A stretch of 64,000 nucleotides of DNA from Spirochaetaceae bacterium (GTDB taxonomy: Bacteria > Spirochaetota > Spirochaetia > DSM-2461). The DNA is taken from assembly GCA_051531975.1 (NCBI GenBank), contig JAOPTT010000006.1:622977-686976 (forward strand). Reading direction: 5' to 3'. Numbering within the stretch: the stretch's first letter is position 1; each line of letters begins with the position of its first letter. The notes below the pieces were generated by a model that worked only from the letters and a program-made list of their open reading frames with translations, was not told the DNA's origin and searched no databases. Below are positions 28,273 to 58,811 of this stretch, in pieces. The position numbers and the translations under genes are program-made.

Positions 28273-28467
28273 ATGAACTTAATTAATGTAACTGAAGCGG
28301 CTGAGATGCTAAGGCTAAGCAAATATACAATTTATAAGTATTCCTCCCAAGGTATACTACCAAAAGTAAAAATTGGTAATAGAGTATCTTTTAGATCAAC
28401 AGATCTGGAAGAGTTTATTGAAAAGCATCGAGTAACTTGTACACAGTATAGCAAGGGAGGGAAGTAA
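28273..28467 (+). CDS. Excisionase-family (HTH_17) DNA-binding protein
   Basis: LINVTEAAEMLRLSKYTIYKY...LP.VKIGNRVSF...DLEEFI. Confidence 0.85.
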   Translation: MNLINVTEAAEMLRLSKYTIYKYSSQGILPKVKIGNRVSFRSTDLEEFIEKHRVTCTQYSKGGK

Positions 28468-28631
28468 TGAATTTCATTAAGTTGGTAGCGTATCTTTATA
28501 CACTTATCAAAACTAGTATCCACTTCCTATTGGTAGAATATGCTGATGGGGAAAAAACACCTCAACTATCTTCTGACAATAGTTATATTGCAAATACAAT
28601 ATTCATAATGAATAAGGTGGTTCTAGTATGA
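28467..28631 (+). CDS. 54-aa hypothetical protein coupled to both neighbours
   Basis: TAATG overlap upstream, ATGA overlap downstream, GGAGG RBS. Confidence 0.5.
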   Translation: MNFIKLVAYLYTLIKTSIHFLLVEYADGEKTPQLSSDNSYIANTIFIMNKVVLV

Positions 28632-30280
28632 GTGATATGATTGAAAGAAACGTCAAATCTAGAGAAGACTTTATTCCTAAAGCTGAACCAGTAGAAAAAA
28701 TTAATATGAAGCTATTTAGAAATACTTTATTTGATAAGTTGAATGGGAAAGTTCCATATATTATTGTTGATGATAAAATACATGGTAGAGTTCCACACTA
28801 CATCGATAGTCATCAAGCTATCGAAGATAAAGAAATGGATAAGCTAAACAAGTTAGTGAGTGATGTTGTTGATGAGGCAATGAGTACTTATCAAGACTTA
28901 AATCTTGAAAAGAGTGTCATTAAAAAGATAGAAAACAGCTTATCATTTGAAGAAGATCTAAAAAAAAGTTTAGCGAGAAAATTAATAAGTGCTATGCCAG
29001 TCTATAAAGAAGAGGACTGTTATTCTAAGACTAAAATCCTTGCACAAAATGGACCGATAGATATAACTACTGGTGAGTTTGTTGATGTCTCAGAGAACGA
29101 GATCTTTTTAAGTATTATGGATGCATCTTACATTCCTGCTCATAATACGATTCCTGATATTATATGGAAGTATTTAAAAAGAGTTTTAGGAGAAACTACT
29201 TGGAATGGGGAGATTCTTTATGCATCAGATAAACGAGTTAATAGCTTTATAAATATACTTGCTTATATGATGACCGCAAGTACCTCTCTTAAGAAAATGG
29301 TGTTCATTCTGGGCCCAACAGGAACCGGAAAGTCTACTTTTATGAATTTCTTTTCTGATATGTTAAGCTCATATGCAGGTACATTATCTGCAGCTGCGTT
29401 AACACATAAACCTGGTCGAGATCCAGAATCCCAACCAGGATTTATTATGGTAAGAAATACACATACAGCAATAGGGGCTGAACCCGGTAAAAAGTACGTT
29501 TTTGCAGATGACATACTAAAGGTTGTTACGGGAAGAGATAAACTTAGTTTAAGAAAGGTAGGAGGTAATAATATTACATTTACACCTTTATTTACTATTT
29601 GCTTTACAGCTAACTTTTTTCCTAAGTTACCTGATATCCAAGATGAAGGAATGTGGTCGAGATTTTTAATTTGTGATTTTAAAAATCAATTTAAAGATGA
29701 TGAGGTAGATACATTATTCTCCGAAAAACTGAATGAACCAGATGTTAAAAATAAGTTCTTCTCAAGCTTAGTGAAAAGAGCTTCACAGTTTTATCAAAAT
29801 GGTGAAAAACTAGAAATTGATGAAAGTTTCTATAAAAACTTAGATTTCTATAAATTTCATCAAAGAGGTTCTTTTGAAAACTTTTTTGATGGTTGTTGCT
29901 ATGTTACTGGGCATAATTATGAGGTTACTAAAGCTAATGATATTTATGAGAGATACATTAGTTTTTGTAACACTCATGACATAGAACATATGAGGAAAGC
30001 TAATTTCTTCAAAGAACTAAAACATGTTGCTGATATTACTCAAGGTATTGAGAAAGTAAAAAGTAATCAGGTTCCATCATCATATCGTGGTATTCAAGTT
30101 GATCAGGTCTGCTGTTATCAGTATCAACAATTTGTTGCTATGCACAAAAATGATTCTGATTTAGAACCTTTATGGTATGGTGGTTCTACCCAAAATGTAA
30201 ATTTAAACAACCAATCAATAGGACACACACGTTCAGATCAGCAATTCAAAGAAGTGTTTAACAGAAAAAGATACGATTGA
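28628..30280 (+). CDS. D5/P4-family SF3 helicase without a recognisable N-terminal primase domain
   Basis: AQNG.IDITTG (D5_N), GPTGTGKST, LK.VTGRD, FTANFFP, GMWSRF, C-terminal winged helix. Confidence 0.8.
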   Translation: MSDMIERNVKSREDFIPKAEPVEKINMKLFRNTLFDKLNGKVPYIIVDDKIHGRVPHYIDSHQAIEDKEMDKLNKLVSDVVDEAMSTYQDLNLEKSVIKKIENSLSFEEDLKKSLARKLISAMPVYKEEDCYSKTKILAQNGPIDITTGEFVDVSENEIFLSIMDASYIPAHNTIPDIIWKYLKRVLGETTWNGEILYASDKRVNSFINILAYMMTASTSLKKMVFILGPTGTGKSTFMNFFSDMLSSYAGTLSAAALTHKPGRDPESQPGFIMVRNTHTAIGAEPGKKYVFADDILKVVTGRDKLSLRKVGGNNITFTPLFTICFTANFFPKLPDIQDEGMWSRFLICDFKNQFKDDEVDTLFSEKLNEPDVKNKFFSSLVKRASQFYQNGEKLEIDESFYKNLDFYKFHQRGSFENFFDGCCYVTGHNYEVTKANDIYERYISFCNTHDIEHMRKANFFKELKHVADITQGIEKVKSNQVPSSYRGIQVDQVCCYQYQQFVAMHKNDSDLEPLWYGGSTQNVNLNNQSIGHTRSDQQFKEVFNRKRYD

Positions 30281-41236: not shown

Positions 41237-41879
41237 AGAATTACCAAATGCATCATTTTCAATAAAGAAACCTCAATTACTGGAATTTCCATCATTTGCA
41301 GTATAAGAGACAAATTTAATCTCAAATACTAGCTATCTAAAAGTAATGAAATGAAAAATTCTGGTTAGTGATAGTAATGATGTCCAAACTTAGCCATAGC
41401 TATCAGATTATTTAACATAAAAATGTAACGACCATAAACACCTAATTATATAGATAACCTAAAATATTCATCTGGTGTGACCAAAACCCAAAACTGTAAT
41501 CAAAAAAAATAGATAAGTGTAAAAAGGTTCTTGGAAAGTTCGTTTCGCTAAACACGGATATATTGACCTATGATCTGATGCTGTTGGAAATCACAGGATT
41601 ATGCAGTTGGAACCTACAATTGATATTATTAAAATATCCCGGTGTTATTTAGTATACAGCCAAACTCATATTTGATAATTACTTTATTACCATCAACTGG
41701 ACTAACAACAGTGCCAATGAGATAAATCTAAATATCAGATAAGCATTATTCAAGGTTGGTCAAAGATTATTTTTTGATGTGGATAAACTATTAAACATAA
41801 TTATAGATCTCTGTAGCTATTATCTAAGTAGGTACAGTATAAGAAATAAGAATCACTCGAGGTGGAGGGTTATTTTAAT

Positions 41880-42216
41880 TGTGAACAAAATTGTGAACAA
41901 AAAAAATACAAAACTGTACAAAAGCAGACAAACCCATATAAATCAAAATGTTTTAAATCCTTTTAATATATAAAGTTATACAAAACAGTACAAAGCTATA
42001 CAAATAATGATATCAGGTTCGATTCCCTCCACCTCCAAAAACAAGACTCTTGTAATTCTATATACAGAAAAGAATTACAAGAGTTTTTCTTTTGATACAT
42101 ATTCAAATGTAGCCAATACTGTAGCCAATACCTAAATAAAGATGGACTGAAACTGTATTTTAAGCAGTCTAGAGGCTAAAAAAAGTATAGGATTCTCAGT
42201 TCAACCCTCCACCTCT
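41880..42216 (+). repeat. att-like unit A (arm pair, phased motifs, tmRNA-3' core, terminator, second arm pair, secondary core)
   Basis: TGTGAACAA x2 (41880, 41892); GGTTCGATTCCCTCCACCTCCA (42016-42037); 14-bp IR (42046-42084); TGTAGCCAA x2 (42108, 42120); AACCCTCCACCTCT (42203-42216). Confidence 0.85.
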
Positions 42217-42288
42217 GAATTAATATAATTTATATTCTGCTATTTTGTGATCTGCAAATTCAAAAAGTTATAATTTAGTAGAAATAAG

Positions 42289-43191
42289 TTATTTACACCT
42301 AAACCCACATTCTTTATTTATGTTGTTATTATTTAATCCCATAAAATTGATTGGAGTATTGGGAAACTCTATTAATAGATTATTAAACTTATTAATAAAT
42401 TCATCATACTCATCTAATGGTTTTATAAGTTCACCTATTATATCCAATATTATGATTATTTTTTTTCTTTGCTTAGTGCTATATATTCTTTGCATATTTT
42501 TAGTAATTGAAGGTTTTATTGTGAGTGATGAATTCCAAAGCCTACCGTGATGGGCACAAATATTTCTTATTGTAGTAATCGATTGAACCCAGGACTCTAA
42601 TAAAAATGGTTTAACTCTGAAATAATTTGCTATATTTTTTTTTACATCCTTATTTTCTAATGATTTATATATTTTTGACCAGCTCCCAAAAGATATTACC
42701 TCAATTAACATCCATGATGCAGGTATTTTGGGTTCAGTATATTTATCTATGTAATTTTTTATAAAAATCTCATTGCTTCTTTTAATTTCTCTCCCAATAT
42801 CTAAAATAAATTTTTCATGATCAAACTGTGCATTTACATGTTTTTTTGATAATGGCCAATGAGAATCTTTACTGTTTAATGACATATGTAAATTTAGTTG
42901 AGTCCGAAATGCTACTTCTATATGGGTAATTGCATCAAATAATATAGTTCTTAACTTATCATCAAAATTATACAGATCAACTACATTTTTAAAATCTGTA
43001 TTTTTTTTATATTTATGGGTTCTCTTCCTATCTTCAAAAATTTCATAGTGTAAAGCATATCCAACAAATCTATAATAGCTTACTTTATTTAGAAACTTCG
43101 TTGCAAAATCTCTATTGGAGATTACCATACCTCTAGACTCTAATATATTAAGTTGTTCTTCAATGTTTGTTGGAGGTGAATTATATTTGAT
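42289..43191 (-). CDS. AbiD/AbiF (Abi_2) family HEPN protein; probable ATC start
   Basis: PPTNIEEQL..L.SRG, VSYYRF, LY.FD..LR, IEV.FR, W.LIEV.SFG, RNICAHHGRLWN. Frame extends 21 codons upstream of the ORF-track ATG to an ATC 6 nt after AGGGGG. Confidence 0.85.
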   Translation of the reverse strand: MKYNSPPTNIEEQLNILESRGMVISNRDFATKFLNKVSYYRFVGYALHYEIFEDRKRTHKYKKNTDFKNVVDLYNFDDKLRTILFDAITHIEVAFRTQLNLHMSLNSKDSHWPLSKKHVNAQFDHEKFILDIGREIKRSNEIFIKNYIDKYTEPKIPASWMLIEVISFGSWSKIYKSLENKDVKKNIANYFRVKPFLLESWVQSITTIRNICAHHGRLWNSSLTIKPSITKNMQRIYSTKQRKKIIIILDIIGELIKPLDEYDEFINKFNNLLIEFPNTPINFMGLNNNNINKECGFRCK

Positions 43192-43217
43192 AGATATCCC
43201 CCTGTTTCATTGGTTAT

Positions 43218-43272
43218 AAAAAAGAAGACCCGTTCTGGTCCGCATCGTAGAGAGGCGTAACGGGTACTGTTA
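43218..43272 (-). ncRNA. Putative abiF-associated structured RNA (RNA antitoxin or leader)
   Basis: Minus strand ACCCGTT-ACGCCTCTCTACGATGCGGACCAG-AACGGGT then CTTCTTTTTT: a GC-rich stem-loop directly upstream of the Abi_2 gene. Confidence 0.65.
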
Positions 43273-43403
43273 ATTTAATCTTAATATGGAGTGTTAAAAA
43301 TAACAACTGCTTTATATAGATATTTACTCACTATTCATGAAATTTTAATGTCAGAATTAATACAACCTTCACTAATTGCACAATCTCTCTTAAATACTAC
43401 TCA

Positions 43404-43562
43404 TGTAGCCAATATTGTAGCCAAAACCCATACAAACTGGTGCAAAACAGTACTAAACCATACAAAGTCTATGACGTTTAAGTTGCGACTCTATATAAAG
43501 TTATACAAAAGAAAGCAAAACGATACAAAACATATTGGAGGTTTCGATTCCCTCCACCTTCA
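43404..43562 (+). repeat. att-like unit B
   Basis: TGTAGCCAA x2 (43404, 43416), phased TACAAA motifs, GGAGGTTTCGATTCCCTCCACCTTCA (43537-43562). Confidence 0.9.
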
Positions 43563-43569
43563 TTTCATG

Positions 43570-44251
43570 CTTATGTAAATCATTATATCGGATATGAATA
43601 ATCCATTTGTATATGTCCCTGCATAAACTTTAGTATCACTAACAAACAGGCAGTCCACATCATTTGTACCAAGTTGTGCAGTTTCGAAGGAATTTGTGGA
43701 TATATTGTAAATACTTAAACCCTGAAGTGTACCGATAAAAATATAATTGCCAGAGCCAGTAATATTATTAATCTGGTTATTTGTTAGACCGTCATCCGTA
43801 GTAAGGTTGTCCAATTTGTGCCACCATCGTTTGAATAAAGCAGACCATTGGAGGAAGTTCCAACGTATATATTCTGCCCAGATGCATAAACACATGTGGT
43901 AGTCACATTGGAAATAGATGTTCCTGTATATGATGTTATATCAAAAGTTTTGGAAAACGAAACATTAGGTAGGTCGGAAGTGAAAGTAATATAGATATCA
44001 TCAGAAACAGTATTTTTACTGTCTGTAACTTCTATTAATAAATCTTTTTCCCATAACCAACTAGGATTTCCATTAGGTACATATCCATCAATGTAGGACA
44101 GAACATGCTTTCCATTCCCATCTACTCCATATGACTTAGGAACCCAATCTAAACCCTTTTTATTAACATGCAGAAGCAGATTGTGGATTGTATCTGAAGC
44201 TTCAGTTACATCTTTATAAATTAAATTATCCTTTTTAAGAGGTTTATTCAT
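43570..44251 (-). pseudogene. Chimeric fragments: phosphotransferase (APH-like) N-terminus fused to a frameshifted beta-propeller fragment
   Basis: HNLLLHV..KG.DWVPK..G.D..G..VLSYIDG, then YVGTSSNGLLYS.DGG.NW and, in another frame, LTTDDGL.NN.I..I...IFIGT..GL. Confidence 0.6.
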
Positions 44252-44314
44252 ATTTCCACCCTCTAATACTTCGTATTCACTTTAATCCATTTTATCTCCT
44301 ATTGTAATTAGTAT

Positions 44315-44935
44315 TTAACCAAAGTGATGTATTGAGTAAGTATTTTCATTTGCAAACAGTTTACCAGTATTACTATCTTTAGCTGAAAAAACATCAGACT
44401 GAAATATATTTATATCATGATCTAAAACTTGATATGTGTTAGTGTCCTTCCAGCCAAAATATAATAACGTTATTTCTGATACCAATACTGAGTTTGGAAC
44501 GTCGTTATATCTACCATCTTTTAACAAAAAATCTTTTTCATCATATTCTTTTAATAGCCTGCCAATCCATGGATGATTTTTTATTGCACCAATTATTCCA
44601 GTACCTAGTAGTTTATTACCTTCATATCCAGCAAAAGCTTTAAAGTTCAATAAATCATCAAATGATTTAAGTACTTCAACATCGGTATCAAAATAAATTC
44701 CTCCCAATTTATTCAAAACATATAGCCTAACATAGTCAGTTACATAAGCATATTTTTTAGCATCATATGCCTCCGAAACAAATTTATTTGATCTGATATC
44801 AAAGTTTTCTTCATTCCATAAAACAAGTTCATATTCAGGTAAGTATTTCTTCCAGGATTTTATGCTTTCTTTTGCTTCACTCGATAATTCTCCATTACCA
44901 AACCAACAATAATGTATTTTTTTAGATATTGACAT
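44315..44935 (-). CDS. Glycosyltransferase, DXD sugar-binding (GT32-like), possibly C-terminally clipped
   Basis: KKIHYCWFG, DYVRLYVL...GGIYFDTDVE; ends at HHFG. Confidence 0.85.
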   Translation of the reverse strand: MSISKKIHYCWFGNGELSSEAKESIKSWKKYLPEYELVLWNEENFDIRSNKFVSEAYDAKKYAYVTDYVRLYVLNKLGGIYFDTDVEVLKSFDDLLNFKAFAGYEGNKLLGTGIIGAIKNHPWIGRLLKEYDEKDFLLKDGRYNDVPNSVLVSEITLLYFGWKDTNTYQVLDHDINIFQSDVFSAKDSNTGKLFANENTYSIHHFG

Positions 44936-45043
44936 ATTTTAACTCCTTCCATATCAATTTTAGTTTGTAATATTGTTTAACCATTAAATAGTTCAGTTGC
45001 ACATCATCTTTTACGTAATTTTCACTGAGAATTTTATTTTCCT

Positions 45044-45939
45044 TTATATAATCTTCTTAATATTATTTTTTAACCGGAAGTGTGTATAGCCAGTAAAAAG
45101 TATGAAGAGAACTACCCATACTATCGTACCAGAAAAACCTGTTTCTATACCAAACTCAGTTCCTGTTATATTGCTAGAAATAGTTGACTCAGTAATAGCC
45201 CCATATAGAGTTGGTCCAATAGTTTTCCCTGAAATATTAAAAAAGCCTTCAACAACAAAATCATATGCAAAATGCAAAGATATAGGCAAAATTAAGGACT
45301 GTGTTTTGTAATATAAAAAACTAAACAACATACCTGCTACTAAAATATTTAAAAATAGCACCAATGGATTACCCTGATTCGAATTTGATACAAAAAAATG
45401 TACTAAAGAAAATATTGATGCAGAGATCAAGCATGCATTAAATGGCTTTTTAAGTATTTGTTCTAAGCGTTTTTGAAAGAACCCTCTAAAAAGGACCTCT
45501 TCTCCAACTACTGCAGCCAAACTTGTTACAAAAGCTAGAGCAACAGGGTGTATTAGATGCTGTGGCGAAAAACGATCAAGCATCCAACCAGAAACTAACA
45601 GACATTTATTCATGGTAAAAACAAGATATGCACTTGTCAGCACAAGAAATGTCCCTAAAAGTCCAACTAAAGAATCCTGAATTATAAACTTATGATCACC
45701 AAGAGCGTGAACTTTAAAGTTTTCATTTCTTGCATATCGGAAATATATAGATACAAATACAATTATGACTCCAATAGAAAAAATCCTAGGTAAAAATCCA
45801 GAGAATTCCTCAAATAGTCCAAGTCGAACTAGTGCAAATCTAGTAATAAAAGAGACAATAACTATAGAAAGTTGAGTCCCTATAAAATTACTATAAGCCA
45901 GATTATATGAAGAAGAATGTTTTTAAGTTTATTAAGCAT
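45044..45939 (-). pseudogene. CPBP/CAAX intramembrane protease, frameshifted near the 5' end
   Basis: GEEVLFRGF, FSLVH, PISLHFAYD. The frame stays open to ~45922 without an ATG, while the RBS-linked ATG at 45939 is out of frame. Confidence 0.65.
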
Positions 45940-46012
45940 TTTATTCCTTTTGAAAAATTTAAATCTTACTGTATATAACACGCAAATACTGTGTAAATGT
46001 TACTTAAAATTA

Positions 46013-46552
46013 TTACCAGTATTCAGGTTTATTTATAGCATCAACACAGAATGAATTATCAGTAATAGATTGGATTTTATCACTTACCAAAGACTGTGCT
46101 AACCAACCTTCTGGATACTCAAGTTTTAAAGGAGCTTTCACAATTTTTTCAGATATTTTATTGTACCCAACTTTTGAGTAAAAATTAATATCACCATAAG
46201 TAAAAACCTGTTCTACATAATTTCCTTTTAAATCCTTGTGACCAAAATTAATCAATTTTTGACCTATTCCTTTTTTTTGATAATCTGAATGGATAGCCAC
46301 TGGAGCTAATAAAAATGTATTAATTTTACACTCTTCAAACTTCAACCTGGAAAAGAGAATACAGCCTATAATTTTTTTATCATCAATAGCGATATAAACA
46401 TGTAGATCATTTTTATCTGTTTTAGTCATTAATTCAAAAGCTAAGTTTCCTATTAACATTCCTTCTTCAACACCTTCAGAATCTGAAAATGTCTTGATAA
46501 ATAACTCTTGTATTTTCTCTATGTTTTCTGATTTATAATTTGAAAATTCCAT
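46013..46552 (-). CDS. GNAT N-acetyltransferase (YhbS-like)
   Basis: LLAPVAIHSDYQKKGIGQKLI, YGD.NFYSKVGY. Confidence 0.85.
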   Translation of the reverse strand: MEFSNYKSENIEKIQELFIKTFSDSEGVEEGMLIGNLAFELMTKTDKNDLHVYIAIDDKKIIGCILFSRLKFEECKINTFLLAPVAIHSDYQKKGIGQKLINFGHKDLKGNYVEQVFTYGDINFYSKVGYNKISEKIVKAPLKLEYPEGWLAQSLVSDKIQSITDNSFCVDAINKPEYW

Positions 46553-46615
46553 TCGATATCCTTCTTATATTATTTAATTATTGAAAATGATAACTTATAC
46601 TCATTCCATGAAGAT

Positions 46616-47396
46616 CTACTTTTGTGAAAAGATCCAGTCTGCTACCTTTTTATTAACAATGTCTGGATTTTCCCATAAAGGGAATCCCCCTGCATTAGGA
46701 ATAATAATACTTTCAACCATTTCATTTTTATCTAATAAGTTCCTCATTCCATGAAATTCAGTCATATCGTAATTACCATTATATGCTAATATCGGTAATT
46801 TTAATTTTTTTAATTGATTAATGATATCCATAGTATCTTTAGTTTTTTTTTCAGATAACCAAGGTTTCCCACTAAATGATTGAAGAATTTTAAGATGATC
46901 TTCTGATCTTGTTTCTTTTGGGTTACGTCGCATATATTTTTGGGTTACGTCGCATATATTCAAACCATTCCGAATGTGTAAACCAATTATTAATAGCCTC
47001 ATCAATTCCTTTCTCAAAAATTATAGACCTGGCTCTATTTATATTTTTATTAAATCCAGGAATTACGACACCCTCGAATATAAACAGTCTTATACTGAAT
47101 ACTTTTTTTAAATATAAATTAAGACCAATTGCTGTACTTGTATGAGTCCCCCAATATATGAAATCATCAATTATTAGATATTTTAATAATTCTATAATAT
47201 CTTCAGTGTATTCTTCTATTCCAAATGGACCATCATGTTCTGAATTACCATGCCCTCTTAGATCTAATGTTAAGCAGTTGAAACTATCCCTAAAAAACTC
47301 AATTTGTTTGTTAAATATGGCCAGATTCTGTGTAAAACCGTGTACAAACACAATTGTCTGTTTTTGGTTATTATTTTCAAAATTATAATTTATCAA
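46616..47396 (-). pseudogene. Alpha/beta hydrolase split by a 22-bp tandem duplication
   Basis: VFVHGF, DLRGHG.S in the first half; duplicated TTTTGGGTTACGTCGCATATAT at ~46916-46960 shifts the frame. Confidence 0.75.
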
Positions 47397-47570
47397 TGAG
47401 TCCTCATAAATGTAAAGTTTACATTTTACTTCTTTAATATTAGATATTTTATTACTATTTTTTAATAAGGAAAACCATTTTTTATTGGTTTAAATAGTAT
47501 ATGCATAATAAGATCTTATATATCTTCTTAAAACAGTATCATTTTTGGATTGATTCACATTTGATATTTG

Positions 47571-47633
47571 GTTGTCCATGCAACAATTGACATATCCTGT
47601 AATAAGGGCTAATTTAGTTATACAGACAACTAA
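47571..47633 (+). promoter_or_regulatory. Promoter with two palindromic MarR-type operators
   Basis: TTGACA(47587)-17-TAATTT; GTTGTCCATGCAAC and TTAGTTATACAGACAACTAA. Confidence 0.5.
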
Positions 47634-47645
47634 AAAGGTTTATAA

Positions 47646-48086
47646 ATGATAAAAGTAAATGATTCAATATATTTTAATATTTCACGGGTGGCTCTTTTAC
47701 TAAGGAGAGATTTTCTGCAAAATCTTAAAGAATTTAATATTACTCCTGAGCAGTGGTCAATAATGGCTTTTCTTAATGAAAAACAAAAGCCAATATCACA
47801 AAAGTCGATAGTAGAACATTTACTAAAAGATAAACATGCTGTTTCAAAAATGATTAATAAAATGGTAAAAAAAGAGTGGATAATAAAAGAAGCTGATATT
47901 AATGATAGCCGAGTAACACTGATATCTTTGACTAAAAAGGGAACTGAAGATATGCATACAATTGGAAATGTTCTATCCAAGTCTCAGCATAATAGAGAAT
48001 ATAATATGTTTCCTAATGAAGAGAAGAAGATGATTCTTAACTTTTTAAAACAAATTAGGATATTTTTTAATGATATAAAGGAGTAA
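47646..48086 (+). CDS. MarR-family regulator
   Basis: ITPEQWSIM, D.R...I.LT..G. Confidence 0.9.
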   Translation: MIKVNDSIYFNISRVALLLRRDFLQNLKEFNITPEQWSIMAFLNEKQKPISQKSIVEHLLKDKHAVSKMINKMVKKEWIIKEADINDSRVTLISLTKKGTEDMHTIGNVLSKSQHNREYNMFPNEEKKMILNFLKQIRIFFNDIKE

Positions 48087-48088
48087 TT

Positions 48089-48382
48089 ATGAATCCACTA
48101 AAAACAGTACAGGATCTAGATCCGGAATTAACTAAGATAATGGAAGATTCCAGATTATTGGCATTTACGGAAGGATCATTAGATTTAAAAACTAAATATC
48201 TAATTGGTTTGTCCATAGATGCAACGAAAGGTACTCCTGAGGGAGTTAGAAGTTTAGCAATACAGGCATTAAAAAACGGAGCAACAAAAGATGAAATCAA
48301 AGAAGTAATAAGAATTGTATATCTAATTAATGGTGTTAGCAGCATGTATCCAGTATCAATTGGTCTCAAAGATTTAATATAG
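48089..48382 (+). CDS. Carboxymuconolactone decarboxylase (CMD/AhpD-like) protein
   Basis: G.LD.KTK.LI.L..D, A...GAT..EI.E. Confidence 0.8.
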   Translation: MNPLKTVQDLDPELTKIMEDSRLLAFTEGSLDLKTKYLIGLSIDATKGTPEGVRSLAIQALKNGATKDEIKEVIRIVYLINGVSSMYPVSIGLKDLI

Positions 48383-48490
48383 GAATATTTTAAATAATTA
48401 TTAACTAATTAAATTTCTAAAAAAAATGTTTCCAAGGGTAACATAATCCCTGGGAACACATCTATATCAATTTGAGAACTGGTAGAATAA

Positions 48491-49846
48491 TTACAGAATT
48501 CGATTATGTTTAATAACATTTTTATAATACTCTGCACTCAATTTAGGAGTTCTTTTTTGATTTTCAAAATTAACATAAACCAGACCAAAACGTTTGGTAT
48601 ACCCTTCAGCCCATTCAAAATTATCTAAAAAGCTCCAAACAAAATATCCTTTTAATGGATACCCTTCTTCTATTGCCCTTGATGCACCTATAAAATGATT
48701 ACGAAGATAAAAAATACGGTCTGTATCTAAAACCTCTCCATCTTTATTTAGTTTATCATTACAGGCACTACCACTTTCTGTAACATATATACTTTTAACA
48801 TCCCATAGCTCATTAACATAGCGTGTACTCCAGTAGATAGTTTCAGGACCAACCTTAATCCATGGAAGATCCATTGAAGGATGCGATGGTGCAAAGTCAA
48901 CAACATTATACCCTTTAGCAGAATTCTTATCTGCTCTTATATAGGTTGGATAATACATATTGATGCCTAAGTAATCTATAGGAGCATTTATTAACTTCAT
49001 CTCATCCAGTGTATAATCAGGAGCATTATCCCCTTCTTCTTCAAGATACTTTTTAGAATATGAACCCTCTAGAAGAGGAGAAAGGAATGATCCATTTATA
49101 TCATGAAAAGCTTGTTTGGCAGCAGCAATATGCTCTTCTGTTTCAAAAATTGGAACACAATTATATGGATTATCAGAAAGTCCAACCTTAATATCACCTT
49201 TTGCATTTTCCCGTAGTGCTTTAAGAGCATAGCCATGCCCCAAAAGTCCATTATGAAAAACCTGGTTTACTTTAGCTCTTGAGAGTGTTTTACCAGGAGC
49301 AAAGACTCCATCTCGATAACCTAACTCTGCAATGCATATATAATCATTTAGTGTATAATAATTTTTTAGTCTATCTGATAACCGTTCAGATATGATACCA
49401 GCATAGTCACCAAAATATTTTGATGTCTCTTTTGATTCCCATCCACCATATTGATCTTCTAATACCTGTGGCAGATCCCAATGAAATAGTGTTGCACAGG
49501 GTTCTATGTTAGCTTCCAGAAGAGAATCTACAAGGCGGCTATAATAATCTATTCCCTTTTCATTAAATTCTCCTTTCCCATTGGGAAAGACTCGGGGCCA
49601 AGATATAGAGAATCTATAAGATTTTAATCCCATATTCTTCATTAAAACAATATCATCTTTGTAGAGATTATATTGATCACAGCTTATATCACCATTATGA
49701 TCACTTTTAATTTTCCCTGGTATATGAGAGAAAGTATCCCAGATAGATTTACCCCTACCATCAATATTAACAGCACCCTCAACTTGATATGCTGACGTAG
49801 AACATCCCCATAAAAAATCTTTTGGCATTTTATATGACTTACTCAT
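48491..49846 (-). CDS. GH1 beta-glucosidase
   Basis: SAYQVEGA, YRFSISWPR, TLFHWD, VTESG, WSFLDNFEWAEGY.KRFG; acid/base site reads TLND. Confidence 0.9.
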   Translation of the reverse strand: MSKSYKMPKDFLWGCSTSAYQVEGAVNIDGRGKSIWDTFSHIPGKIKSDHNGDISCDQYNLYKDDIVLMKNMGLKSYRFSISWPRVFPNGKGEFNEKGIDYYSRLVDSLLEANIEPCATLFHWDLPQVLEDQYGGWESKETSKYFGDYAGIISERLSDRLKNYYTLNDYICIAELGYRDGVFAPGKTLSRAKVNQVFHNGLLGHGYALKALRENAKGDIKVGLSDNPYNCVPIFETEEHIAAAKQAFHDINGSFLSPLLEGSYSKKYLEEEGDNAPDYTLDEMKLINAPIDYLGINMYYPTYIRADKNSAKGYNVVDFAPSHPSMDLPWIKVGPETIYWSTRYVNELWDVKSIYVTESGSACNDKLNKDGEVLDTDRIFYLRNHFIGASRAIEEGYPLKGYFVWSFLDNFEWAEGYTKRFGLVYVNFENQKRTPKLSAEYYKNVIKHNRIL

Positions 49847-50355
49847 ATAGACTCCTATTTAGTATTGTAATCATAGATTTTTATTATTTAGATGTAAATA
49901 TTAAATGGATCATAATTTATTTACTGCCATCGATATTCATTATCAATGAGTTATACTGTCCAATTTAAGAAATATATATAAGTGATTAATATGAAACTTT
50001 ATACTTTTGTTTATCGAGCCATTGATGTCCATATACAATAAAACCTTCTCTACCATTGAATCTATCAACCCCAAAAATTGAGCCTTGATTTTTATCTAAA
50101 AATCGGAGCTTTAATATAAGCTGTTCATCTTTCCTTTTAAGATTTATTAATTTAATATGATTTTGAAGTACTTCATGAAAAACTATTGGATTAGTCTTTT
50201 CTGATTTTTAGTGTTTAAGATATCTTAATAATTACCTAAAACGGATTTAATATTGTTGTTCATAATATAGTCCAGGGTTTCAATTGAAAACTCAGCTCTT
50301 GTTATCATAAACAATAAGTCTAGACATCAACATTTCCTAAAAAATTTATTTGAAA

Positions 50356-50817
50356 TTAATTAATTGGAATAAAGATATCAATTTCAGATTTACTACTATT
50401 CCAATTAAAACGATTATCATATCTTTCATAATGTACCATAGGTCTATCTAAGTTTAGCTTAAAACTATTTTTTGGCAATATGTCTTTATATATATCAAAA
50501 TATGTAAATTTTAACTTATTCATGTCTCCACAATGAACAAACTTAACGTATTTATTTTTAGGTATAACATATTGCTTTAAATTTACAGAATCTATAATTG
50601 GTACTGAAGGCATATAAAAATAACTATTATTCTTTTTGAATGTTAATCCGTATTTTTCCCAATTATGATCAATACGCCTTTTTATAGTATTAAACATACT
50701 ATTAACTTTTTCCCAATGGTTAGATATGATTCTTTGATTTTCTGTTTGAGACTTAGTAAGTAAAACAGGTAAACCTTCTACTTCTTTTTTATCTATTTCT
50801 AATATTTCCCAATTCAT
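50356..50817 (-). CDS. GyrI-like small-molecule-binding domain protein
   Basis: IPKNKYVKFVH.G, ERYD.RF, SEIDIFIPI. Confidence 0.75.
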   Translation of the reverse strand: MNWEILEIDKKEVEGLPVLLTKSQTENQRIISNHWEKVNSMFNTIKRRIDHNWEKYGLTFKKNNSYFYMPSVPIIDSVNLKQYVIPKNKYVKFVHCGDMNKLKFTYFDIYKDILPKNSFKLNLDRPMVHYERYDNRFNWNSSKSEIDIFIPIN

Positions 50818-50860
50818 TTACTAAAGTTCCTACCAACTGATAATAAAACAATCGTTTATT

Positions 50861-51346
50861 TTAATCAAATTCACCAATTATCAGCCCACTGTTATGTGCA
50901 ATATAGACAGTTTCTCCATCACAAAACACTCCATTTGCTGAAATATTTGGGAACGACGTATACCTGTCTACTTCAACATCTTGCCAATTTAATCCATCAT
51001 CGGCCGAAATCTACAGTTTCCCACCATATTTAACACATACCAAGTATGTTCCATCATTGGCAAACCCCATTATTGAACCACCACCAAGAGTATAATAGTC
51101 ATCAACAAAAGTCTCTCCTGAATCTGTAGATCTAGAATAGTAGGTGTCGATAGCTGCAACAACAGTACTTCCTGAAACATATAATAATTTCATATCTGGA
51201 GTATAATCCGAATAAGCAACTACTAAAGTGTCAGCATTTGAATAATCCAGGTTTAAAGTGGTTAAAATATGATCACCAGCAACATACAAGGTTGATGTAT
51301 AAATAATTAATCGTATAAGAACTTTGGTATAGATTTTTACAATCAC
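50861..51346 (-). pseudogene. Beta-propeller (BNR/WD-like) gene fragment, frameshifted
   Basis: SRSTDSGETF BNR-like motif; continuation SADDGLNW...GVFCDGETVYIAHNSG in another frame. Confidence 0.5.
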
Positions 51347-51495
51347 CTTTAATTATCTAAGGGATTTCATCCCTTTATTAGTTTGAAATTCACCACAATA
51401 TATCTATCTTGTTTATCTCTGACTATTAATATATAGAAATCTTTAATCTAATTGACCAGCCACTATAAAGACTATAAAGACTATAAAATTAGAGT

Positions 51496-51654
51496 ATGAT
51501 TAAGAAATCTTTTGAAGAGAAAGTTGAATTTATTAAAAAGAGTAGACTTAAAAATTACAAAGAGAGTTTAAGGCTTGAAGGTCTAAATCCCTCTGTTCAC
51601 CTCCATGGAAAAACTCGAGCAGAGATAATATCATATTATACACACAAGAAATGA
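51496..51654 (+). CDS. yhfG: YhfG-like Fic antitoxin
   Basis: RLKNYKESLRLEG carries the (S/T)xxxE(G/N) inhibitory motif; ATGA overlap with fic. Below the ORF-track cutoff. Confidence 0.75.
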   Translation: MIKKSFEEKVEFIKKSRLKNYKESLRLEGLNPSVHLHGKTRAEIISYYTHKK

Positions 51655-52243
51655 AATCTATAAAGTATGGTACTGATGAAGATCCATATAGCTATAAAGA
51701 TACTGACATATTAATTAATAAACTGGATATAAGATCTAATATCACATTAGAAAATATTGAAGAAGAGATTTCTACCTTAGCTGTAGGTGAAATTGATTTT
51801 GCAACTCCTCCCTATAATTCTAAATATTGGCAGAACATTCATGAAATACTATTTAAGGACTTATATAATTGGGCTGGAGAGTTTCGAACAGTTCATATTA
51901 CTAAAGGTTCAACAGTCTTTTCAATCCTCTATATATAGATCAGGAGTTAAATAGGATTTTTACTGACTTAAGTAGAAATAAATATTTTGTAGATTTACCA
52001 GTTGCACTATTAGTTACGAACATAGCATAATTATATATTGAGTTGAATATAATTCATCCTTTTAGAGAAGGGAATGGACGTTCTCAGCGCATATTATTTG
52101 ATCATATGTTAGCAAACTGTGGATATAAAATTGATTGGGGTAAAATATCAAAAGATCACTGGTTAGAAGCTAATATTTGCAGAGTAGACCTTAACTACAA
52201 GCCAATAGAAAATATTATGTCGGATTGTTTAGTAGAGTTTTAA
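51651..52243 (+). pseudogene. fic: Fic-family toxin pseudogene
   Basis: DPY.Y....L.NKL, IH..LF.D.Y.WAG.FR and HPFREGNGRSQR; frameshift near 51925 plus an in-frame TAA near 52028. Confidence 0.85.
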
Positions 52244-52502
52244 TTATTTGGTGTATAAAATTACATTTCTAATTTCCTAGGGAGTTAATTATCCTAGCTC
52301 TATCCACAAACCCCTAACATATACTTCTAATGAAACCAAAACAAATGCATTTAATGTTCTAGTTGCTATCACATTCAATTTGTAAACTCCTAATAATATT
52401 ATGCAATATGAATATCAACAATAATATATCAATTTGCGATATTATTTCTAATTATTTTATTAAATCTTTCTATTTCTTAGTGTCCTTATGTTATCTCTTT
52501 TG

Positions 52503-52840
52503 TGTGACCAAAACTGTGACCAATTGAAATACAAAGCCGTACTAAACCATACAAAGCGATACAAAGAGTCGACGACCTAAGTTACTAAAGGGTATAAAGT
52601 TATACAAAGAGAGACAAAACCGTACAAATAAAAGACGAGGATTCGATTCCCTCCACCTCCAAAAACTAGACTCTTGTAATTCTATATATACAAAAGAATT
52701 ACAAGAGTTTTTCTTTTTATAAATATTTCAATGTAGCCAGTATGTAGCCAATACGAATAGAAAATGGTCGTTGAAACAGCATTTAAAGCACTCTAGAAGC
52801 TTAAAAAAGTACAATATTCCCAGTGTAACCCTCCACCTCT
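52503..52840 (+). repeat. att-like unit C (composite, like unit A)
   Basis: TGTGACCAA x2 (52503, 52515); GACGAGGATTCGATTCCCTCCACCTCCA (52634-52661); IR 52670-52708; TGTAGCCA x2 (52732, 52743); AACCCTCCACCTCT (52827-52840). Confidence 0.9.
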
Positions 52841-52916
52841 TGCTATGTAAAAGCAGTTAGTATATTAACTGCCTACAGAATCTATCTATGATGGACCATA
52901 TTGTCTAGACTAAATG

Positions 52917-53270
52917 TCAGCCACAAATCTTAATTTGTTTTTCTTTATTATATAAATTATAAAAATATGCTTCATCTGGTGTTCTTTTCCTAAGGGAATT
53001 ATGTGGTCTTCTTAAGTTGTATTTATCAATATATCTATTAATTCCTTGAATCGCTTCTATTGGATTTTCATAATCTTTTAAATAAACTTCTCCATATTTT
53101 AATGTTTTCCAGAATCTTTCGATTGTGATACTTTCTGATTCAGAAGTATCTGGGAAAAATAATCCTAAACAGCGGAATATAATTTTTACAATACTGATAG
53201 GCATATCTCTAAATACAACATCAAACATTAGGATAGCCATTGGAGTTCCTTGATTAGATATAAACATCAT
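52917..53270 (-). pseudogene. IS3-family transposase C-terminal fragment
   Basis: IERFWKTLKY.EVYL..Y, YN..RPH.SL...TP.E.Y. Confidence 0.8.
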
Positions 53271-53351
53271 ATATAACTAGCTAATAAAAACTTCCTATAA
53301 CATATAAAATTTAGAATTGTAATAAAGCATTATCCACTATATTATAAGTAT

Positions 53352-53669
53352 ATGAATCAGGATAAAAAATTAGAAAAAATCAAGGACATAATAGTCGAAA
53401 CTGTACATCCAGATAAAATTATACTTTTTGGATCACGAGCCAATGGTACAAATAAAGACGACAGTGACTATGATATCTTTATACTAAAAAATGGTATTAC
53501 TAATGAAAGAACCATAATTGGTGATGTCAATGTTGCCCTATTTAGGAATCATATTATTGATGATATTGATATTGTCGCAGCTAATCCTGAAAAATTTGAA
53601 AAACACAAAAACAATGACTATTTAGTTTATAAAGATATTTATAACCAGGGAATAACTATTTATGGATAA
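53352..53669 (+). CDS. Minimal nucleotidyltransferase (MNT) antitoxin
   Basis: ILFGSRA.G...DSDYD. Confidence 0.9.
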   Translation: MNQDKKLEKIKDIIVETVHPDKIILFGSRANGTNKDDSDYDIFILKNGITNERTIIGDVNVALFRNHIIDDIDIVAANPEKFEKHKNNDYLVYKDIYNQGITIYG

Positions 53670-54042
53670 GAGCATTGATCCAAAAGAATGGTTGAACAGA
53701 GCTTATGGTTGTTTGCTAAGGGCGAGAAAACCTATTGAAGAAGGTATGTACTATGAAGACTTCTGCTATGACTGCCAGCAAGCAGCTGAAAAAGCTCTTA
53801 AAGCCCTAATCGTTAGATTAGGTCTAGATCTACATAGAACCCACTCTTTTAGAAAACTTCTTAACGAATTAACAAAAAGAATAATTATTCCTGAATCAAT
53901 ATTTGATGTTCTTAAAATTGAAGTATATGCAGTAACAACAAGGTACCCAGATGATTTTATTGAAGTATCTGAAAATGAATATAGAGAAGCATTAGAAATT
54001 GCTCAAAGAGTATATGACTGGACTTCAGAAAATATAAAATAA
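53662..54042 (+). CDS. HEPN-domain protein paired with MNT
   Basis: CQQAAEKALKA, RTH, YAVTTRYP; overlaps the MNT stop. Confidence 0.9.
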   Translation: MDKSIDPKEWLNRAYGCLLRARKPIEEGMYYEDFCYDCQQAAEKALKALIVRLGLDLHRTHSFRKLLNELTKRIIIPESIFDVLKIEVYAVTTRYPDDFIEVSENEYREALEIAQRVYDWTSENIK

Positions 54043-54273
54043 ACTTCTATAAAATCTTACCTTTAGATGAATATAACCATTATTATTGTTTAAACCTTGT
54101 ATTAGATAAATACTAAAAAGTTACGAATTCCGTAAATTTACTAAATTCGAATCACTTCAGGTGTAGAGTTACGTTTCATTGTAACCAAAATTGGATAGCC
54201 ACAACCACTCTATTGTTCATTATGATGCAGTATTGTTTCCTAGAAAGCGAAAGTACTATGTAATCTTGTCAAA

Positions 54274-54432
54274 TGTAGCCAATATTGTAGCCAAAACCCA
54301 GACAAACTGATACAAAACAGTACTAAACTATACAAAGTCTAAGACATCTAAGTTACTAATCTGTATAAAGTTATACAAAATAAAGCAAAGCGATACGAAA
54401 GCTATTGGAGGTTTCGATTCCCTCCACCTCCA
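54274..54432 (+). repeat. att-like unit D
   Basis: TGTAGCCAA x2 (54274, 54286), phased motifs, GGAGGTTTCGATTCCCTCCACCTCCA (54407-54432). Confidence 0.9.
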
Positions 54433-54434
54433 TT

Positions 54435-54770
54435 TTAAGACTTATATAAATCTTTTATTGAAGTGATTAGCGTTGGAATTGTTCTTGAAACAGTTGTCCA
54501 AATTATTTCATAATCAACAACATCATAACCATGAATTAATCGATCCCTCATACCAGCCATAGCTTTCCATGGAATACTTTTATTTGATTCTCTAAAATCA
54601 TCAGGGATTCGCTTACTAGCTTCACCAATAATCTCCAAACATCTTATTACTGCAAATTGAGTTTTTTCATCGTATTTGAACTCATCTTTTGATAGTCCCT
54701 TTATAAACTCTTGGGTTAATTCCATAGATTTTAAAATATCGTTAAGATAGACCTTAAAATCTTTTTTCAC
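54435..54770 (-). CDS. hepT: HepT-like (DUF86) HEPN RNase toxin
   Basis: LEIIGEA, IPW..MAGMRDRLIHGY (RxxxxHxY). Confidence 0.9.
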   Translation of the reverse strand: MKKDFKVYLNDILKSMELTQEFIKGLSKDEFKYDEKTQFAVIRCLEIIGEASKRIPDDFRESNKSIPWKAMAGMRDRLIHGYDVVDYEIIWTTVSRTIPTLITSIKDLYKS

Positions 54771-55063
54771 AGATATTGAACCTCAGATAATATAGATTCA
54801 TTAATTATAGGTTTGAGTGAAGATTTTAGGACGAGATCAACTGTAGTATTTAGATCTTCAGTAAGTTCCTGCTCTAATGTAATAAGATCAAAAAGATCCA
54901 TTTTCGAGGGCCTAGACAAATCAATGAGTATATCAACATCACTGTTAGCATTTTCTTCACCTCTTACATAAGATCCAAAGATACCTATTTCACTAATACC
55001 TGATTCTAGTAATCTCTTTTTCTTTTTAAGAAGTGTATCTTTGATGATGTTTAAGTCTGTCAT
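54767..55063 (-). CDS. mntA: MntA-like nucleotidyltransferase antitoxin
   Basis: IFGSYVRGE....SDVDIL, VDLV...L. Confidence 0.9.
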   Translation of the reverse strand: MTDLNIIKDTLLKKKKRLLESGISEIGIFGSYVRGEENANSDVDILIDLSRPSKMDLFDLITLEQELTEDLNTTVDLVLKSSLKPIINESILSEVQYL

Positions 55064-55191
55064 ATATCCCTCTTACTAATATTATACTACTGCTAATTTT
55101 ATTTAAATAGAAGTAATTAAAATTTTACTTGTCTATTCAAACCTAATATTGAATTATCTACTGCAGATGTCATTAGTGCACATACTGTAAA

Positions 55192-55349
55192 TGTAGCCAA
55201 TATTGTAGCCAAAACCAATTCAAAATGGTACAAAACAGTACTAAACTATACAAAGTCTATGGCTTCTAAATTACGACTCTATATAAAGTTATACAAAATA
55301 AAGCAAAGACATACGAAAGATATTGGAGGTTTCGATTCCCTCCACCTCT
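55192..55349 (+). repeat. att-like unit E
   Basis: TGTAGCCAA x2 (55192, 55204), phased motifs, GGAGGTTTCGATTCCCTCCACCTCT (55325-55349). Confidence 0.9.
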
Positions 55350-55381
55350 AAAGATGTACTTTTTTTATTTAAACAATCTAA

Positions 55382-55480
55382 GTAGCCAAAACAAATTCAA
55401 AGGCATACAAAACCGTACTAAGCGATACAAAAATAAAGGCACCTACCCCTACACAGTATATAAAGTCATACAAAACCATA
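55382..55480 (+). repeat. Partial att-like unit F (arm and phased motifs, no core)
   Basis: GTAGCCAAAAC...CATACAAAACCGTACTAAGCGATACAAA...TATATAAAGTCATACAAAAC. Confidence 0.7.
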
Positions 55481-55536
55481 TTAAGGTAGCTAATATATCT
55501 AAAGCTGAATACCCATGCTATATGTTGATATAGTTT

Positions 55537-58329: not shown

Positions 58330-58597
58330 AATCTGATCCTCCCAGTTAAATTGTAATCTGGTGAATCTAAAATGCAATGTTTTTTATTCTGATACTCGTT
58401 TGACGCACCATTATACTCATAAGTAACTTCAATTTAGTTTGACACTCAAGATACTTAAATTCAAAATAATTACTAATTATATTTTGAGAATCAAGATAAA
58501 TAAGAAGTTCACGTGGTAGTAAAAAATTTATATAAGTCTAAATATTAATTAAAAATTTTATATATTAGGTGTGAATATTATTTTGAATATTAAATTA

Positions 58598-58724
58598 AGT
58601 CATCAATTAAGATAATTAACTTTGGTATTGATCGGGTAACAGTCGTCTATATTATCTCATAATCAATAACATCATAACCGTAAGTTAGTCTATATCTCAT
58701 CCCAGCCATTTATATCCAAGGTAT
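58598..58724 (-). pseudogene. Relic of a second HepT/DUF86 gene
   Basis: Minus strand reads IPWI*MAGMRYRLTYGYDVIDYEII*TTVTRSIPK, colinear with the C-terminus of 54435..54770. Confidence 0.8.
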
Positions 58725-58811
58725 AAAACTGTTCAATAAATTAAAGCCTATGTTAATTCTTTTCTCGAGCTAACATGGGCTTTAATCTTTATGACAGCTT
58801 ATTACTTTCTT

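Follow-up and report, generated by a model that had tools for sequence, protein, structure and literature searches.

The window analysed here, a stretch of 64,000 nucleotides from a Spirochaetaceae bacterium (G000:C6:622977-686976; the source genome, G000, comprises 5.46 Mb and is 98.5% complete), contains an array of five direct repeat units, A to E, each of which ends in a copy of the 3′ end of ssrA, the gene for transfer-messenger RNA (tmRNA). The array is probably the result of serial site-specific insertion at ssrA, that is, of tandem accretion, which would have produced an 86-kb pile-up from ssrA to 55.5 kb of the window; accretion had already been proposed in the preliminary description of this DNA and is the natural reading of the locus. 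All elements of the array would then share one attachment core, namely the terminal ~20 nt of the tmRNA gene. The proximal element of 73 kb, which begins at ssrA, looks complete, and the four distal, integrase-less segments would be remnants or hitchers resembling cis-mobilizable elements (CIMEs). The locus is a clean, anchored example of defence and toxin-antitoxin (TA) genes piling up behind a tmRNA gene, with the target gene, the integrase, both arm types, and putatively live as well as decayed sites together on one contig.

Attachment sites whose core is ssrA's 3′ end

Five copies of the core, the 18-mer TTCGATTCCCTCCACCTY, are found in the window (at 42018, 43543, 52642, 54413 and 55331), all of them on the + strand; the count expected from 100 shuffles is 0.00. 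The five cores agree at 17-18 of 18 positions and follow each other at distances of 1525, 9099, 1771 and 918 nt; no further core is present in the long segment B-C at up to 5 mismatches in 20. Upstream of every core lies a related arm of ~165 nt (repeat families D1-D4), and an nhmmer profile made from the five units finds each of them with E values of 1e-37 to 3e-49. The units are:

41859-42037, +: unit A, attR-type right end of the 73-kb island; doublet TGTGAACA twice at 41880-41900, phased motifs, core 42018-42037; nhmmer E 1e-37
43399-43562, +: unit B (type 1); doublet TGTAGCCA twice at 43404-43424, phased motifs, core 43543-43562 (CCTTCA variant); nhmmer E 5.5e-49
52498-52661, +: unit C (type 2); doublet TGTGACCA twice at 52503-52523, phased motifs, GACGAGG lead-in, core 52642-52661; nhmmer E 5.5e-44
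54269-54432, +: unit D (type 1); doublet TGTAGCCA twice at 54274-54294, core 54413-54432; nhmmer E 2.8e-49
55187-55350, +: unit E (type 1); doublet TGTAGCCA twice at 55192-55212, core 55331-55350 (CTCTA variant); nhmmer E 9.4e-49
55361-55536, +: unit F, a decayed, coreless type-1 arm abutting the pntB stop (55537); nhmmer match 55361-55478, E 5.5e-12; core position mutated in the alignment

All arms are laid out alike: a direct doublet of 8-9-mers lies at about -139 to -118 relative to the core, and after it come eight RTACWAA-like motifs in two blocks of four, one at -113/-103/-93/-83 and the other at -49/-40/-30/-20. The spacing of these phased motifs is 9-11 nt in 31 of 39 cases, and they are common to all units regardless of the doublet type. 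Units B, D and E are mutually 87-89% identical without a gap, and Rfam assigns no family within the units themselves. Thus, the five arm-plus-core units read from the sequence at the outset, and their assignment to sites of the lambda/P2 type, are upheld. Of the partial arms named along with them only the one at 55382 (+) is recovered by the profile; for ~41476 and ~54180, inspection by eye gave no more than one degenerate doublet-like word each, which the profile did not detect at E ≤ 10. A perfect 11-nt inverted copy of the 3′ part of the core (GAGGTGGAGGG; 41859-41869 versus 42025-42035) lies left of the unit A doublet, 155 nt from the core; it is kept in the sister species G001 (AGGTGGAGGG at 239876) and is not present at the other units.

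In the 5.46-Mb genome the unit profile has no match outside the ssrA/array locus. Within the locus, it matches units A-E, the coreless arm at 55361-55478, two short pieces behind A and C, the end of ssrA, and an inverted arm-like stretch just past the integrase gene. A genome-wide search for the unit had been proposed as a check; the sole further copy of the core is the 3′ end of ssrA, which makes six copies on one strand of one contig (C6). ARAGORN finds no gene for tRNA or tmRNA inside the window; ssrA lies upstream on the + strand (G000:C6:591850-592230, that is, window -31126 to -30746), with its 3′ end, ...GGTTCGATTCCCTCCACCTCCA, ~73 kb before unit A. It matches the Rfam tmRNA model over the full length with 148 bits, and smpB is found 4.4 kb upstream. 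The gene starts with GGGGGTG and ends with CACCTCCA, from which the G3.U70 pair follows, so that the core had rightly been taken for a tmRNA 3′ end with this determinant. Likewise, the GACGAGG lead-in of unit C, described at the outset as typical of tmRNA, is that of ssrA (GGACGAGGGTTCGATT). The tag peptide called by ARAGORN for this ssrA is odd (AVPRLLCTVRNRDLPFVSLRA; G001 and G002 have AKKEDE...LALAA), probably because of a wrong resume codon in the call.

As had been anticipated, ssrA is directly followed by a gene for a tyrosine integrase with all catalytic residues. It lies 120 nt downstream (conserved start at C6:592354, stop at 593457; 367-374 aa) and encodes a Phage_integrase and a SAM-like domain (Pfam); six family members share R215, K247, H314, R317 and Y349 without exception, and PHROGs assigns it as integrase (2.9e-46). 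In the AF2 model (from a 6-row alignment; pLDDT 79) residues 6-50, at the start, are predicted to fold into three strands and a helix (pLDDT 63-84). Foldseek ranks full-length chains of lambda Int highest (1z1b/1z1g, E 1.6e-10); Tn1549 Int is also among the best structural matches, and one IntI structure (2a3v) comes only at rank 23. Pfam gave nothing at E ≤ 10 for the N-terminal 99 aa or for the 63-aa open reading frame (ORF) behind int, and phmmer of the integrase against PDB sequences gave 0 matches. The enzyme is predicted to be an intact, lambda-like, three-domain integrase. A tblastn search with four family integrases matched G000 only at this gene, with no second family integrase. Directly past its stop, outside the window, an inverted arm-like stretch (G000:C6:593518-593640, -) reads TGTAGACA..TGGACACA, followed by phased ATACAAAA/GTACAAAA/GACAAAG motifs and no core; it may be a regulatory region using the same arm-binding factor.

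Ends of the elements and their arm doublets

A terminator hairpin (GACTyyTGTAAwTC...) comes after the core at ssrA, A and C, and next to it stands a doublet, which is TGTGAACA behind ssrA (~70 nt past its end) and TGTAGCCA behind A and C:

42036-42216, +: P′-type left end behind core A; terminator hairpin 42036-42094, TGTAGCCA twice at 42108-42128, degenerate core A′ (CCCTCCACCTCT) 42205-42216
52661-52840, +: P′-type left end behind core C; terminator hairpin 52661-52717, TGTAGCCA twice at 52732-52750, degenerate core C′ (CCCTCCACCTCT) 52829-52840

Arm-type repeats, unlike the core in sequence, are therefore found on both sides of the core, as in heterobivalent sites. The ~100 nt behind A and behind C are 92% identical (repeat D5). 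The proximal element has the order terminator hairpin, TGTGAACA doublet, integrase, excisionase-like gene and P arm (unit A) with the same doublet. Segments A-B and C-D have also kept both ends, with terminator and TGTAGCCA doublet on the left and TGTAGCCA arm and core on the right. Behind B and D only ~30 nt, the left half of the terminator hairpin, precede the cargo; the flank of E is unrelated.

This architecture recurs in relatives. Integrase orthologues of 54-80% identity lie beside ssrA in four other genomes of four genera, one of them the genus of G000, and the order ssrA, terminator, doublet, int is present in all six relatives examined (G001, G008, G018, G041, G045, G021). Where the far end of the island was read (G001, G018, G041, G045, G021) it consists of doublet, A-rich phased arm and core. 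The corresponding order of target gene, terminator, doublet and int was also seen at five loci of more distant integrases of the family; two of these are behind tRNA-Met and tRNA-Pro called by ARAGORN, and at L044 and L045 the tRNA-like 3′ end was recognized by eye only. In G002 ssrA is unoccupied and has its own terminator but no doublet. The doublets are distributed as follows:

TGTGAACA: G000 int and unit A only
TGTGACCA: G001 int, G001 attR and G000 unit C
TGTAGCCA: in G000, units B, D, E, A′ and C′; elsewhere, in front of the G018 integrase and of the truncated int start of G045
TGTAACCA: G008
GACATCA: G021, both ends

In the six ssrA islands read at both ends, the P′ and P doublets match in four (G000, G001, G021, G018), resemble each other in G041, and are unmatched in G045, where int is truncated; the P′ doublet of G001, read by eye, is of the TGTGACCA type with an imperfect first repeat. 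Between G000 and G001, whose integrases are 80% identical, both aligned P-arm repeats change from A to C. TGTAGCCA differs from TGTGAACA at 3 of 8 positions, the doublet of unit C at only one base. The G018 integrase, which goes with TGTAGCCA, is 57% identical to that of G000 and its N-terminal hairpin differs.

By analogy to P2/186, the doublets are probably the arm-type sites bound by the N-terminal domain of the integrase. For P2/186 attP, the source gives the consensus tgTGGaCa, arm sites read by the N-terminal domain, and groups of arm sites that track groups of integrases (PMC3448106); this consensus is close to TGTGAACA, TGTGACCA and TGTAGCCA. The likeness is one of fold and site layout only, with no sequence-level match of the N-terminal 99 aa to a Pfam family or of the protein to a PDB chain. 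The targets here, moreover, are ssrA and tRNA genes and belong to islands of a marine bacterium, not to phage genomes. The phased RTACWAA motifs may be sites for an excisionase or a bending protein; they resemble the direct repeats, spaced by one turn, that are bound by excision factors such as Apl (PMC7498355), and a link to an excision factor is suggested by this likeness. An HTH_17 gene (28273-28467) and eight motifs with 9-11-nt spacing are both part of the proximal element and might form such a pair. Element-specific doublets that match between the two ends and change together could provide a predictor, from sequence only, of which integrase moves which islet.

With these assignments, the accretion can be formulated as follows. 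An incoming element at ssrA would rebuild the 3′ end of the gene together with a terminator; the old 3′ fragment of ssrA, preceded by the P arm of the element, would be displaced outward as an attR-type site, and units A to E would be such sites. For the proximal island (ssrA x A), the resident integrase is probably capable of excision; as the ends are matched and the integrase appears intact, this island may still excise. Because the doublet of unit C is only one base off the cognate one, composites reaching C are conceivable, in which case the integrase might form a composite circle carrying the intervening cargo. Units B, D and E would require a TGTAGCCA-specific integrase from another element. 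Mobilization in trans had been put forward in the preliminary description; that the neighbouring integrase moves all cassettes in this way is doubtful because TGTGAACA is present only at its own gene and at unit A, because units B, D and E have doublets that depart from it at 3 of 8 positions, and because G000 encodes no TGTAGCCA-type integrase.

When TGTAGCCA-N3-4-TGTAGCCA was searched in GTDB genomes, at least 120 loci (L089-L208) from many phyla were found. At 30 of the 120 listed loci a tRNA or tmRNA gene of the same orientation has its 3′ end 30-85 nt upstream of the doublet, with at least 14 tRNA identities; by a rough estimate such placement would be expected by chance in well under 1% of matches. 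Integrase tblastn matches accompany 5 of the 120 listed loci, and a Phage_integrase ORF is within 2.5 kb in 3 of the 17 loci scanned with Pfam. TGTAGCCA seems to be an arm-site word that is very widespread among tRNA-targeting elements.

Probable accretion, its alternatives and known systems

Comparison with G001, the sister species in the same genus, bears on the age of the array. There, ssrA is followed by an integrase gene broken into two frames and an 82-kb island, whose common genes are 76-79% identical. The orthologue of unit A is 86% identical, with core and left half of the terminator at 100%, and the AbiD segment behind it is 77-78% identical to that of G000. Further downstream are MNT-HEPN pairs (70-71% identity, orthology uncertain), then a HepT-MntA pair (82%) and a remnant TGTAGCCAATATTGTAACC doublet without core. 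The order and orientation of AbiD, MNT-HEPN and HepT-MntA are equal in the two genomes while the sites of G001 are decayed or missing, which argues for an old array kept by vertical descent and not for frequent shuffling; the idea of a shufflable store is not borne out. The genes pntAB, which adjoin the array in G000, are absent near the ssrA loci of G001 and G002.

In surveys whose pattern covers this core type only, the core was found in 35 of 38 genomes of the family, where pairs on the same contig, 6-82 kb apart, represent single islands and six copies occur only in G000; in the class it was matched in 135 of 401 genomes, with more than three copies only in G000. A search of the genome contigs with the integrase gave 33 pattern matches, none of which was confirmed. 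Metagenome scans gave 0 matches for the proximal arm plus core; for the 19-mer at the arm/core junction they gave five loci in unrelated DNA, all due to chance (four with 54-60% GC, one with 34%) and without tmRNA.

Several points weigh against accretion. Identity between B and its positional orthologue in G001, the core of which has decayed, is only 66%, and their alignment has 49 gap columns, while B, D and E of G000 are 87-89% identical to each other; unlike pure dead scars, the sites of G000 look maintained or homogenized, and maintenance, gene conversion or younger age could each account for the likeness of B, D and E. Truncation of the left end has its limit at nearly one place in B-C and in D-E, for which independent deletions are a poor explanation. 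No genes for conjugation or packaging were seen in the 73-kb island. The roles given to doublets and phased motifs draw on analogy and on co-variation in six elements. Finally, the read-level evidence comes from one public run (X1, a marine metagenome and probably the source) in the form of k=31 contigs, and among the 8 of 69 pieces listed, Logan contigs bridge none of B, C, D and E; this missing bridge says nothing for or against the array.

The same likeness of B, D and E would suit the integron-like platform of the preliminary description, in which the integrase next to ssrA and a Xis-like factor circularize cassettes and reinsert them at ssrA or any core, so that the locus would serve as a shufflable store of TA and defence genes. 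The integrase appears intact and adjoins the primary site, the five cores match at 17-18 of 18 positions, the common phased motifs would fit one accessory factor, and the D-E cassette is minimal (0.9 kb). Such a platform is nevertheless unlikely: the doublets of B, D and E are off the resident type and elsewhere precede the G018 integrase or the truncated G045 int, there is no second family integrase in the genome, B-C and D-E have no P′ doublet, the cargo order is identical in G001, and the rarity of more than three cores among the 401 genomes of the class means that the arrangement is not widespread there.

Integrons consist of an integrase gene beside a primary site and an array of recombinase-less cassettes, every one of them with a recombination site at its end; these attC sites form imperfect hairpins and recombine in single-stranded form, and the cassettes are mostly promoterless and co-oriented behind the promoter Pc. 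The array is alike in having an integrase by the primary site and recombinase-less cassettes with terminal sites; it differs in its unstructured arm-plus-core sites, in genes on both strands, and in an integrase nearer to lambda Int than to IntI. A search for inverted repeats gave only the terminator hairpins and, at unit A, a single 11-nt pair that has no counterpart in B, D or E, and thus no attC-type hairpins; the AbiD gene, moreover, has its own 5′ RNA motif, which does not suit a common promoter. Integron-like function, as first suggested, is therefore not supported.

A related proposal, a helper-hitcher system at ssrA, holds that defence and TA cassettes of 0.9-1.8 kb are kept live, with intact cores and conserved arms, and are moved as circles or composites by any integrase targeting ssrA, the doublet being the address code and the phased motifs serving one shared excision factor. 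This is improbable; if true, it would be an analogue of the integron based on a tyrosine integrase and built on double-stranded lambda/P2-type sites.

There is very little probability that the units spread inside the locus by duplication or homologous recombination (unequal crossing-over, gene conversion). That B, D and E are closer to each other than B is to its positional orthologue, the 92% identity behind A and C, and self-consistent junctions, type-1 arms having a truncated flank and type-2 arms a full terminator, would fit; however, the segments between units have no sequence in common with one another, each unit terminates precisely in the ssrA core, the three doublet types are each known from a different integrase in relatives, and single islands with equal end structure occur there.

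A misjoin of the metagenome-assembled contig through the repeated units, which its origin in a marine metagenome, the breaks of the k=31 contigs at B-E and variant contigs of minor depth around unit C might suggest, is extremely improbable: the longest exact match between two units is 31 nt, so that the order is unambiguous for reads or k-mers longer than that, the k=31 contigs have an even depth (~32-45) over the array, unit A is bridged by a contig, a second contig extends from E into pntA, and A, AbiD and the arm of B are collinear in the 3.67-Mb contig of G001. The minor contigs (depth 6-11 versus ~38-44; 52553-52708) overlap unit C as well as the terminator behind it, differ there by small indels and at several bases, and suggest a second related copy or strain. 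A contig joint from 52598 to 54416 (depth 11 versus ~38, side 30, 11 other letters between) was considered as a variant without segment C-D and was not counted because of several other letters in arm C and because it is at the limit of caution.

Tandem accretion at ssrA with CIME-like members, the reading preferred here, is of a known kind. The repeats are the 3′ end of the target gene, in its orientation and downstream of it, ssrA and the integrase appear intact, and integrase-less members with both ends are present, as in tandem islands. The layout is less new than first supposed: tandem ssrA islands, among them some that lack integration genes, have been described, as has the accretion of CIMEs (PMC3146451, PMC5704250). 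In Dehalococcoides, multiple tandem islands lie behind ssrA, bounded by ssrA or direct repeats of its 3′ end, all less than 100 kb from ssrA; some lack an integration module and were proposed to be cis-mobilizable and joined by accretion (McMurdie et al. 2011, PMC3146451). These islands are described there with a CcrB-like large serine recombinase, DsiB, a 20-bp repeat with ~15 nt of extra conservation, and rdhA cargo. The array, in contrast, has a lambda-like tyrosine integrase, a 165-nt P arm, segments down to 0.9 kb, and Abi/TA cargo; its sole recombinase is a tyrosine integrase, which together with arms of that length sets it apart from serine-recombinase (SCC-type) systems.

Streptococcal CIMEs of the ICESt1/ICESt3 type have lost the integration genes, kept attL and attR, and form tandems with an element that bears an integrase, next to a target gene's 3′ end; their origin is given as insertion, decay and new insertion, and excision and cis-mobilization are reported as experimentally shown (PMC5704250). 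The array resembles them in its att-flanked, integrase-less tandem members, whose mobility is putative. The streptococcal tandems ride conjugative elements; in the array no conjugation genes were seen, and it has four segments in a row and at least three types of arm sites. In the open-access literature, no layout was found in print that has arm sites of a tyrosine integrase together with integrase-less segments below 2 kb at ssrA; the array is different from the described cases in its long-armed lambda/P2-type site, in islets as small as 0.9 kb, and in its at least three arm-site types. The largest island catalogue, TIGER/Islander, drops islands below 2 kb and requires an integrase gene (PMC12424338); integrase-less islets of this size would therefore be uncounted there and under-recorded.

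Cargo of the island and of the segments

The defence-rich island from ssrA to A carries genes for a type I restriction-modification system, a KAP NTPase, STAND NTPases, ArdC, three RadC paralogues and SSB. The segments behind it had been described as free of integrase genes and as a TA/defence store, and Pfam and PADLOC show Abi and TA cargo in them; no integrase domain or remnant was detected between the units (41-56 kb) by Pfam or by tblastn with four family integrases (all E>1). The features are:

28273-28467, +: excisionase-like HTH_17 gene in the 73-kb island (Pfam HTH_17 7e-15; PHROG phrog_66, excisionase and regulator, 4.7e-10)
28628-30280: primase-like gene after the HTH_17 gene (primase PHROGs 9e-40)
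42289-43264, -: cargo of segment A-B, AbiD/Abi_2 gene at 42289-43128 (Pfam Abi_2 2e-53; PADLOC AbiD 2e-62)
43228-43264, -: abiF-like RNA motif, a 37-nt hairpin in the AbiD leader (Rfam RF03085, 30.9 bits, under the gathering score of 37, E 0.035)
43563-52497: segment B-C, 9 kb of mixed cargo (Pfam, PADLOC) with glycosyltransferase, CAAX protease, GNAT, split alpha/beta hydrolase, MarR+CMD, GH1, GyrI/Cass2-like protein, YhfG and broken Fic
52917-54042, both strands: cargo of segment C-D (Pfam, PADLOC PDC-S09), rve_3 transposase remnant 52917-53270 (-), MNT nucleotidyltransferase 53352-53669 (+) and HEPN 53662-54042 (+)
54435-55063, -: cargo of segment D-E, hepT 54435-54770 and mntA 54767-55063 (Pfam HepT-like 1e-29, NTP_transf_2 8e-14; PADLOC PDC-S09 9.5e-24)

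In G001, a stretch of ~90 nt (275761-275850) is 87% identical to the region of the AbiD leader with the RNA motif. In segment B-C, a perfect 22-nt tandem duplication (46916-46959) is located at the split of the alpha/beta-hydrolase frame (ORFs 46616-47017 and 46923-47396) and is likely the frameshifting lesion of this gene; at 51496-52243 a gene for a YhfG-type antitoxin is followed by Fic in two pieces, which correspond to positions 9-99 and 140-203 of the 209-position PADLOC model PDC-S04. A 111-aa ORF ending at core B was considered as a relative of hepT, which also has 111 aa, and was rejected for want of a BLASTP alignment.

As stated from the outset, the stop codon of hepT (complement at 54435-54437) lies 2 nt past core D including CCA; the 3′ end of hepT overlaps the remnant of the left half of the terminator. 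Beyond unit E the decayed unit F is followed by pntB. Between pntA and lon, ~150 nt at 58587-58733 resemble the 3′ part of hepT (76% identity to the hepT region of G001) and look like a TA remnant past the apparent end of the array.

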